A DNA stretch of 59,390 bases, from positions 1 through 59,390 of the forward strand of contig RDOE01000012.1 of the NCBI GenBank assembly GCA_011364975.1. Reading direction: 5' to 3'. This document shows positions 19,527 through 47,153 of the stretch, piece by piece. The notes beneath the pieces were generated by a model. It saw only the letters and a list, made by a program, of their open reading frames with translations. It ran no database searches and had not been told where the DNA came from. Position 1 is the stretch's first letter. Each line of letters begins with the position of its first letter. Source of the stretch: Promethearchaeota archaeon. Lineage in GTDB: Archaea; Asgardarchaeota; Lokiarchaeia; Sigyniarchaeales; SOKP01. The position numbers were made by a program, and so were the translations under genes.

Positions 19527-19736
19527 AAGATTCGAGTTTTCTATAATTTAACCACCTATCTCTTATTTTGCAATGATAATAATATGATATTAATCCTTTT
19601 TATGAAATTTGCATGCTGGGTCATGTCTACCAACAAACAAAGATAAAACTTATAATCTTACTTTTTAAAATAATAAATTATTATTAGCAATAAATTATTC
19701 TTACCTTTAAATTAAGTATACTAATTACTATAAAAA

Positions 19737-22789: not shown

Positions 22790-22794
22790 AGGTG
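22790..22794 (+). promoter_or_regulatory. Shine-Dalgarno-like AGGTG upstream of the Rab-like GTPase
   Basis: GGTG at 22791-22794 lies 7 nt before in-frame ATT 22802; the same GGTG precedes ATG 23337 and ATG 27854. Confidence 0.6.
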
Positions 22795-22801
22795 TTAAAG
22801 A

Positions 22802-23332
22802 ATTTCATCATATGATTACACGTTTAAAATATTATTACTTGGAGATGCTTCTGTAGGAAAAACATCATTTACCAAAAGATATTGTTATAATATATTTAAT
22901 CCTTCTGAGCGTCTTACAATCGGAGTAGATTTCCACGTTAAAACAATTGATTTAAATGACAAAAAGGTAAAGTTACAAATCTGGGACGTTGGAGGGGAAG
23001 AACGCTTTAGATTTTTATTGCCCACCTACTGTTTAGGAGCAAATGCAGCCTTTTTATTATATGATATTACACGACCACAAACCCTAGATAATATTGCTGA
23101 ATGGACTAATATTGTCCGTCAAAAGGGTGGTCCTATTCCTATAATGCTAGTAGGTTCAAAATTGGATCTTACTGATACCCAAAGACAAATTACTAGAGAA
23201 TATGGTATTCAGGTTGCTGAAAAAAATGAATTAGCATCATTTGCAGAAATATCAAGCAAAACTGGACAAAATGTCAATAAAACATTTGAGGTTCTCACAG
23301 AACTAACGTTAAAACGAACTGAAAGTAGGTGA
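22802..23332 (+). CDS. Rab-like small GTPase (Ras superfamily), 176 aa, probable ATT start
   Basis: Frame is open upstream of the track ORF (23018): (I)SSYDYTFKILLLGDASVGKTS...TIGVDF...KLQIWDVGGEERFRFLLPTYCLGA..LLYDIT..GSKLD..EISSK. Confidence 0.93.
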   Translation: MSSYDYTFKILLLGDASVGKTSFTKRYCYNIFNPSERLTIGVDFHVKTIDLNDKKVKLQIWDVGGEERFRFLLPTYCLGANAAFLLYDITRPQTLDNIAEWTNIVRQKGGPIPIMLVGSKLDLTDTQRQITREYGIQVAEKNELASFAEISSKTGQNVNKTFEVLTELTLKRTESR

Positions 23333-46630: not shown

Positions 46631-46871
46631 CACACATTTTTAAAATATGTTTACAACTTTTTTAGTTGTATATTCAAATATGGATCATGTTATATTTATA
46701 GCTTTACACTAATCCTACAAGTACACCTACTAAAATTACTAGTACTACTACTAGGTTTACTAGCACAAATTGAGTTTGCTTAACCATAACTGTTTTATTA
46801 ATAGAAAGTTTGAAAAAGTTTAAATCACTACTAAAAAGAATAGTTTAAAACAGCATTTTTGGTGTTGATTA

Positions 46872-47153
46872 ATTTACTACCGTGGATATATCTTAATTCG
46901 CTTGAAAATTATCGGGACTCAGTGGAAAATAGTTGAAAAGCTGAAAAAATTTCATCCTGAAGGAGACCAAGATTGGAAAATTACCTATACCTCTCCTACC
47001 TACGGTGGTTGGGATTTAATTATTGAATGTGCCTTTAATAATCTCGAAGACTTGGATAAAATTGTTTCATTTTGTAGATTCGATAATGAATTAAAGGATT
47101 GGATTGAAGCTACAACCACGTTAATAAGTATAAGAAAGAATTATAATCTTTAG
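46872..47153 (+). CDS. Lrp/AsnC ligand-binding (RAM)-like small protein, 93 aa, probable ATT start
   Basis: (I)YYRGYILIRLKIIG...TYGGWDLIIE...IEATTTLI fits the RAM ferredoxin-like pattern; the track start TTG 46902 cuts off strand 1. Confidence 0.7.
   Translation: MYYRGYILIRLKIIGTQWKIVEKLKKFHPEGDQDWKITYTSPTYGGWDLIIECAFNNLEDLDKIVSFCRFDNELKDWIEATTTLISIRKNYNL

Follow-up and report, generated by a model that had tools for sequence, protein, structure and literature searches.

The window analysed here, i.e., the whole stretch of 59,390 nucleotides from a Promethearchaeota archaeon, has a GC content of 32% and corresponds to contig C33 of a 3.74-Mb genome in 200 contigs (30.6% GC). Our subject is the start of a small gene, predicted at 46872–47153, which encodes a stand-alone protein resembling the RAM domain, i.e., the ligand domain of Lrp/AsnC regulators, and which appears to begin with ATT instead of a canonical start codon. 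From 46861 the plus strand reads GGTG TTGATTA ATT TAC TAC CGT GGA TAT ATC TTA ATT CGC TTG, and the sole open reading frame (ORF) with a canonical start listed here runs from TTG 46902 to 47153, giving 83 amino acids. The original prediction placed the start at ATT 46872, seven nucleotides behind a GGTG Shine-Dalgarno (SD) motif and following an in-frame TGA at 46866, and drew attention to the same geometry at a GTPase gene in the window. Direct reading of the window confirmed the GGTG-N7-ATT arrangement, the TGA and the TTG, as well as the arrangement at the GTPase gene, where GGTG (22791-94) is followed by the spacer TTAAAGA and ATT 22802. The features of both genes are collected in Table 1.

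Table 1. Features of the RAM-like gene and of the Ras-family GTPase gene, in coordinates of the window
Feature	Position	Strand	Remarks
Shine-Dalgarno element GGTGT, RAM-like gene	46861..46865	+	7 nt before the start codon; GGTG at 46861-46864; would pair with CACC of the 16S 3' end
In-frame TGA stop	46866..46868	+	closes the frame 2 codons upstream of ATT
Predicted ATT initiation codon (near-cognate AUU)	46872..46874	+	from the aligned codons of 20 loci
Predicted coding sequence, 93-aa stand-alone RAM-like (Lrp/AsnC ligand-domain-like) protein	46872..47153	+	TAG stop included
TTG, codon 11 (Leu), first canonical start in frame	46902..46904	+	choice of a standard gene caller; judged not to be the real start
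Shine-Dalgarno element GGTGT, small GTPase gene	22791..22795	+	GGTG 6-7 nt upstream in 24/27 orthologous loci
Ras-family small GTPase gene, predicted ATT start	22802..23332	+	176 codons plus stop; Ras family match

Start codons of the RAM-like and GTPase genes

A six-frame protein search of 41 genomes, that of the window included, found the RAM-like protein in all 24 other genomes of the same genus and in 7 of 16 genomes from the other families of the order. Starts were compared across 20 orthologous loci, i.e., the locus in the window and 19 others. The codon aligned with ATT 46872 is ATT in 18 of these, ATC in one (L013) and ATG in one (L019), and GGTG precedes it by 8 nt in 18 relatives and by 7 nt in the window, which covers all 19 loci with a codon other than ATG; the single ATG locus lacks it. 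An alignment of the leader DNA of 18 loci showed no change in GGT and a conservation of at least 90% for the fourth G, in divergent surroundings. In 15 of the 20 loci the stretch from the upstream stop to ATT is free of in-frame canonical starts, and in five a TAG stop stands immediately 5' of ATT. Within codons 2–10, seven positions vary only synonymously (TAC/TAT, CGN, TTA/TTG/CTN) and two vary between Ile and Val, unlike the region upstream of ATT, where the reading is not conserved across orthologues. Judged from these alignments, protein-coding constraint begins at the ATT codon.

In the homologues compared, the aligned codon is furthermore interchangeable with ATG. Besides the ATG of L019, a paralogue in the same genome (C193) opens with ATG TAT TAC CGA, i.e., M-YYRGYIL, its ATG falling in the aligned column. 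Homologues from outside the genus begin with M, up to five further residues and then YYRGYIL. In the clade of the paralogue, GGTG lies 6–7 nt upstream in all four loci with ATT or ATC and in none of the seven with ATG at the aligned position, one of which (L084) has GGTG 10 nt upstream. Based on the orthologues and on the fold of the protein described below, ATT 46872 is very probably the translation initiation codon of a stand-alone RAM-like protein of 93 residues.

The canonical alternative is a start at TTG 46902 (or at a TTG in codon 8 in some relatives), which would yield a protein of 83 amino acids and leave the ATT region as untranslated leader. This TTG is the first canonical start in the frame, the ORF beginning with it is listed by a standard caller, and codon 11 is TTG in eight of the 20 loci. 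In the other 12, however, codon 11 is no start codon (TTA in four, CTT in five, CTA in three), and in six loci the next canonical start is found 40–50 codons further 3'. Inspection of the leader sequence revealed no SD preceding TTG 46902, and codons 2–10, conserved at the protein level, form the first strand of a confident structural model and encode residues that stand behind ATG in the paralogue and in homologues from outside the genus. We therefore regard initiation at TTG as very unlikely; the possibility raised in the original prediction, that orthologues would place the start there, is not borne out.

Even less probable is a start further upstream, by read-through of TGA 46866 or from another codon, e.g., TTA 46869, with ATT as an internal isoleucine codon. 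Before the TGA the frame does stay open over 13 codons, but the upstream stop of the relatives is TAG, TAA or TGA at varying distance, in the five loci mentioned above directly before ATT, the upstream reading is not conserved, and the codon before ATT varies between TTA, CTA, CAG, AAG, AGA, AGG and a stop. The same variation in the identity and distance of the stops led us to reject TGA 46866 as a conserved selenocysteine site.

As the genome is a single metagenome-assembled genome with an estimated contamination of 6%, an assembly or sequencing error was also considered, along with a pseudogene in decay whose ATG is gone. The identical codon in 18 independent assemblies rules out a sequencing error, against which the original prediction had argued from its two cases; an intact frame, conservation of the protein in 24/24 same-genus genomes and the confident model are further arguments against both readings. 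The chance of either is negligible, and both were rejected on the conservation across the genus.

Some observations weigh against initiation at ATT in the RAM-like gene. Five of the 20 loci carry an in-frame TTG or GTG 1–10 codons upstream of ATT, so a canonical start is possible in those species, and eight loci have TTG at codon 8. Furthermore, the relatives share ancestry, and the locus counts given here overstate independence.

The protein translated from ATT was modelled with AlphaFold2 (pLDDT 90.7, pTM 0.80; 93 residues), giving a ferredoxin-like b-a-b-b-a-b fold with strands at residues 2–11, 35–42, 48–55 and 78–85, helices at 17–25 and 58–70 and an extra short helix at 72–77. As the first strand comprises residues 2–11, a start at TTG 46902 would delete it, and the earlier claim that ATT restores the first beta strand agrees with the model. 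The top Foldseek matches were the stand-alone RAM proteins 2cvi and 2e1a together with the Lrp/AsnC regulators 1ri7, 2cyy and 2cg4 (2cvi_A: E 1.3e-4, TM 0.72; 2e1a_A: TM 0.77; TM range of the matches 0.64–0.77), and a family profile search matched 2cvi_A at E 0.0018. While the fold agrees, the Pfam family AsnC_trans_reg (PF01037) scored 13.5 bits (E 0.07) on the 93-residue protein, below its cut-off of 25; we thus call the protein RAM-like by fold and not a proven family member, and the RAM domain of the original prediction holds for the fold and falls short at the Pfam threshold. Like the stand-alone archaeal RAM proteins (2cvi, PHS023; 2e1a, FFRP-DM1) and the Lrp/AsnC ligand domain, the protein has the b-a-b-b-a-b fold without a helix-turn-helix (HTH) domain, and it is similar in size to 2cvi and 2e1a (93 versus 75–83 amino acids). 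Unlike known RAM proteins, it has the extra helix at 72–77, does not reach the PF01037 threshold, and carries the motifs YYRGYIL, PxYGxWD and TTT, which are specific to this Lokiarchaeial family.

The gene at 22802 behaves in the same way, with a near-cognate ATT start behind an SD as far as its sequence and orthologues tell. An in-frame TAA (22796-98) lies between GGTG and ATT 22802, the Ras family of Pfam matches from residue 9 counted from this ATT (E 1.5e-44), and the P-loop LLGDASVGKTS follows 12 codons after ATT, the next in-frame ATG, GTG or TTG being 72 codons away. In 27 orthologous loci, out of 31 genomes searched, the codon aligned with the start is ATT in 16, ATG in six, ATA in three and GTG in two, and the three loci without GGTG at 6–7 nt all have ATG. 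When the two sets were pooled, GGTG was found 6–8 nt upstream of 40/40 non-ATG starts versus 3/7 ATG starts (Fisher p 2e-4, which overstates significance because the relatives are not independent).

Probable near-cognate starts across the genome and the lineage

Near-cognate starts were sought throughout the genome in 3742 stop-to-stop ORFs of at least 100 codons, in which every codon from the upstream stop to the first canonical start was considered. A triplet was scored when a 5-mer of AGGAGGTGATC lay upstream, spacing being counted from the last G of GGTG. The strict test admitted triplets with no in-frame canonical codon upstream at all; the lenient test ignored the GTG within GGTG, which leaves a canonical alternative for candidates at spacing 6. 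This ORF-conditioned test replaced raw triplet counts after every GGTG, which showed only codon periodicity and were uninformative because most GGTG lie inside genes.

Isoleucine codons (ATT, ATA and ATC, together ATH) were enriched behind an SD in all versions of the test (Table 2), and ATT starts therefore exceed chance genome-wide, a check already named in the original prediction. The geometry of the RAM-like and GTPase genes, i.e., ATT 7 nt behind an SD 5-mer, was itself found beyond chance where no in-frame canonical start lay upstream (22/2262 versus 97/26513 for other non-start triplets; odds ratio (OR) 2.7, p 1e-4), and the spacing optimum of the ATG starts of this genome is 5–8.

Table 2. 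Triplets at SD spacing among all triplets considered
Test	ATT+ATA+ATC	Other triplets	OR	p
Strict, spacing 6-7	68/4769	138/26513	2.8	1e-10
Strict, spacing 7 only	48/4769	97/26513	2.8	6e-8
Strict, spacing 6-7, next canonical start at least 11 codons away	46/2118	55/12486	5.0	6e-14
Lenient, spacing 6-7	84/4823	153/26706	3.1	1e-14

Taken singly in the strict test at spacing 6–7, ATT (33/2262) and ATA (29/1817) contribute alike, CTG shows enrichment from low counts (4/144, OR 5.5), and the second-position variants ACG, AAG and AGG show no enrichment. The systematic AUU initiation proposed in the original prediction thus stands as a genome-wide habit, with the correction that AUA is used as much as AUU, and AUC and CUG more weakly. 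Over background, the strict test gives an excess of about 43 genes and the lenient test one of about 56, both being lower bounds since only 5-mer SDs at two spacings were counted; before background subtraction, 68 ATH compare with 123 ATG, TTG and GTG in the strict test at spacing 6–7. With the spacing widened to 5–9, CTG behind an SD reached 9/144 (strict, OR 4.3, p 5e-4), and these counts suggest occasional CUG starts in this genome.

Candidate starts were then examined against Pfam. Each of 20 hand-picked candidates has a Pfam domain that begins (profile positions 1–12) before the first downstream canonical start, namely ATP-grasp_2, Aminotran_5, CTP_transf_like, GCV_T, two Gtr1_RagA, CbiA, two ABC_tran, FAD_oxidored, Proteasome_A_N, Aldedh, metallo-beta-lactamase, CinA, GFO_IDH_MocA, ECH_1, TFIIB zinc ribbon, GPN-loop ATPase, DJ-1 and TsaD. 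An unselected set comprised all 70 ORFs with ATH at spacing 6–7 and the next canonical start at least four codons away; 50 of them have a Pfam match and 26 need an upstream start, 21 of the latter without an in-frame canonical alternative. Enzymes and ATPases predominate among the genes confirmed in this way, which also include some regulators and GTPases. Regulatory genes are thus not the only ones to show the habit, and the regulatory setting that the original prediction saw in its two cases does not extend to the majority, which consists of ordinary enzymes, ATPases and a proteasome subunit.

Other results of these tests count against near-cognate initiation, or against its extent. ATC alone is weak in the strict test (p 0.07–0.2). 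Spacing 6 puts the GTG of GGTG in frame, giving 13 of the 70 candidates a canonical alternative three codons upstream, among them the Kae1, TFIIB and enoyl-CoA hydratase cases; accordingly, the hand-picked TsaD, ECH_1 and TFIIB genes have a possible start at such a GTG within the SD motif. In a control set of 33 ORFs with AAT, TAT, TTA, AAA or TTT at matching spacing, 17 have a Pfam match and six likewise call for a start further upstream. In four of those six, an ATT, ATA or ATC stands in frame no more than three codons away; the remaining two (L288 and L300) are unexplained.

How far the habit reaches was assessed with a control for method and base composition, i.e., 1.2 Mb of the closed genome G032 from the sister family f2, which has 31% GC. 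No enrichment of ATT (7/588, OR 1.3) or ATA (3/387, OR 0.9) was found in these 1.2 Mb; ATC reached 7/211 (OR 3.8, p 0.004), and the three codons pooled 17/1186 (OR 1.6, p 0.06). ATC is hence the only isoleucine codon enriched in G032. A 1192-codon ORF of that genome (C1 ~1,566,379, plus strand, within loci L180), whose N-terminus resembles by eye that of RNA polymerase subunit A', carries an ATC at 7 nt from AAAGGTG, with the next canonical start 26 codons away.

The Kae1/TsaD gene was compared at 30 loci across the order. Several loci of the genus, as well as genus g12, have ATT or ATA behind an SD, and L094, L105, L112 and L113 (genera g1 and g13) are devoid of any canonical in-frame start, while the four loci of family f2 use ATG; in the genome of the window the Kae1 start is ambiguous, with an in-frame GTG inside the SD. 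Taken together, the loci compared make it likely that SD-led near-cognate initiation is a lineage-wide habit, present across the genus and in at least some parts of its Lokiarchaeial family.

Further genes with unusual starts were noted along the way. At ~19544-19547 of the window, on the minus strand, an ORF of ~481 codons has ATT and ATA directly after the stop, 5 and 8 nt behind AGGTGG, and its first canonical start 6–7 codons further; its N-terminus, IIENSNLLPNIVIFIADEMRGD, looks sulfatase-like by eye. In a class-I aminoacyl-tRNA synthetase gene on the minus strand of C113 (L285; tRNA-synt_1 from residue 11), the 58 codons that follow AAGAGGTG contain no canonical start; TTA stands at ideal spacing, and ATT and ATA follow the SD at 1 and 16 nt, respectively. 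On the minus strand of C142, near the contig end, an actin-family ORF (L296) covers profile positions 58–401 only and begins eight codons after a TAG, its N-terminal part being missing, split off, or located beyond a recoded or erroneous stop.

The aIF1 gene and a proposed mechanism

The factor that rejects non-AUG starts, aIF1, is encoded by a single SUI1/aIF1 gene in this genome (C38:7704-8033, minus strand; loci L121/L122). After an in-frame TGA it reads AAT AAG AGT ATT AAA GAC GAC GAG ATT TGT CCG, and in-frame ATG, GTG and TTG are absent up to the zinc knuckle and through most of the protein. The gene was compared at 30 loci from 46 genomes of the order. All 15 orthologues with at least 85% identity (genera g1, g12 and g16) have a stop, two to three codons and then ATT (ATC in two), and share the conserved leader AAAGGTTGTGA, whose GTGA lies 10 nt before ATT. 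Three of six more distant f1 loci also have ATT or ATC after a stop; genera g13 and g15 show the stop-then-ATT arrangement, and g14 is ambiguous, with an in-frame GTG in a stronger SD. Family f2 has GTG, TTG or ATG at six loci; at two others, of genus g5, the codon is ATA and a canonical start is lacking. Going by these leaders, the gene has a weak initiation site that is conserved among relatives. Because its SD consists only of GTGA at the long spacing of 10 nt, the start assignment is less secure here than at the other genes, which also tells against ATT. By eye, an out-of-frame mini-ORF (GTG AAA AAA GAG TAT TAA) overlaps the ATT at its end.

The partner of the SD was sought in the 16S rRNA. 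In the genome of the window, positions 4–828 of this rRNA are assembled and its 3' end is not, so two same-genus genomes were used; their 3' end is GGATCACCTCCT, complementary to GGTGAT. ARAGORN found 10–15 tRNAs in the genome and Rfam 21. One initiator-like tRNA with anticodon CAU is present (C170:15971-16103, minus strand), with an A1:U72 pair, a GGG/CCC anticodon stem and two introns, all identified by eye. No initiator tRNA with an NAU anticodon was found among the 21 matches, a set that is far from complete; a second initiator is possible and would tell against the decoding proposed below. The genome is rated 99% complete, and with 21 matches many of its tRNAs are probably intron-rich or unassembled. 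ARAGORN also reported a tRNA-Pyl (anticodon CTA).

The following mechanism would accommodate these observations. The GGUG(U) of a short leader would pair with CACC near the 3' end of 16S rRNA and place the P site 7 nt downstream, where the initiator Met-tRNA (anticodon CAU) would accept AUU with a mismatch at the third position. The RAM-like protein would then probably start with Met, and its output would probably be lower than from AUG. At least ~40–55 genes would start with AUU or AUA, and a few with AUC or CUG, always behind a well-spaced SD; the GTPase gene at 22802 and numerous housekeeping genes would be among them.

It is plausible that near-cognate initiation forms a layer of translational control, as the original prediction proposed, the sole pointer to which is the ATT start of aIF1 itself. 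Passages of PMC6237735 describe aIF1 as destabilising initiation complexes on non-AUG mRNA, and report that eukaryotic eIF1 represses its own poorly contextualised start (Ivanov et al. 2010, as cited there). An AUU-initiated aIF1 gene invites the feedback logic of infC: translated from AUU behind a weak, long-spaced SD, aIF1 could be held by negative feedback of the infC/eIF1 kind at a set-point at which proofreading stays permissive. We consider this reading speculative and rather unlikely. If true, the 40 or more SD-dependent AUU/AUA genes, which include small GTPases, RAM and HTH regulators, the proteasome alpha subunit and metabolic enzymes, would be a regulon that follows initiation stringency, and a prokaryotic counterpart of eIF1-controlled near-cognate initiation would exist in the closest archaeal relatives of eukaryotes.

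A quite possible alternative, to which we give somewhat less than even weight, is that the ATT and ATA starts are real but neutral, i.e., products of AT mutation pressure (ATG to ATA or ATT) that a strong SD makes tolerable, aIF1 being no feedback device. The low GC content of the genome (30.6%), the functional diversity of the affected genes and the drift of the GTPase start between ATT, ATA, ATG and GTG within the genus fit such an origin. It sits less easily with the sister-family genome, which at 31% GC shows no ATT/ATA enrichment, with the RAM-like gene, where ATT is kept in 18/20 loci while neighbouring third positions vary freely, and with aIF1, whose ATT or ATC is kept in 15/15 close orthologues together with the leader.

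Comparison with known initiation systems

Gene callers limited to ATG, GTG and TTG would cut or miss ~1–2% of the genes in these Asgard genomes. The truncated genes include eukaryote-like small GTPases that lose their P-loop, which distorts inventories of eukaryotic signature proteins. SD sequences are described, in the relevant passages of the reviews PMC7531240 and PMC12993045, as rare in Lokiarchaea. In the present case the SD has been retained precisely at weak start codons, a pattern suggesting that labour is divided between AUG starts independent of the SD and near-cognate starts that depend on it. In the full-text literature that was searched, with subscription journals and supplements outside its scope, we found no ATT, ATA or ATC starts in Asgard archaea and no non-AUG aIF1 gene. 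Relative to that literature, three features are new: how densely such starts occur in an archaeal lineage, the use of AUA on a par with AUU, and the AUU start of aIF1. The habit is a lineage-wide variant of known near-cognate initiation.

In Escherichia coli, infC, the gene of IF3, starts with AUU and is translationally autorepressed, and pcnB also has an AUU start. As in these two genes, the start proposed here is an SD-led AUU, a weak codon that would limit output and be read by the initiator tRNA; as with infC, a factor that rejects such codons would be made from one, aIF1 being similarly arranged. Unlike infC and pcnB, the starts described here belong to an archaeon with factors of the eukaryotic type (aIF1, not IF3), in which feedback is our inference only, and they concern dozens of genes instead of two or three, with AUA as frequent as AUU. 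In the NCBI genetic code table 11, ATT, ATC and ATA are listed as rare starts. The same minor codons are used here, and while they are rare exceptions in annotated prokaryotes, they account for a measurable share of the SD-led starts in this genome.

The AUU start of aIF1 in an Asgard family would offer a testable archaeal analogue of both IF3 and eIF1 autoregulation, and bears on the origin of start-site stringency control. The likeness to eIF1, as described in part in PMC6237735, is that aIF1 is its orthologue, has a role in fidelity and would have a weak initiation site of its own. Unlike in eIF1, this weakness would lie in the codon and the SD, not in the Kozak context, and the site would be selected under the guidance of the SD, not by scanning.

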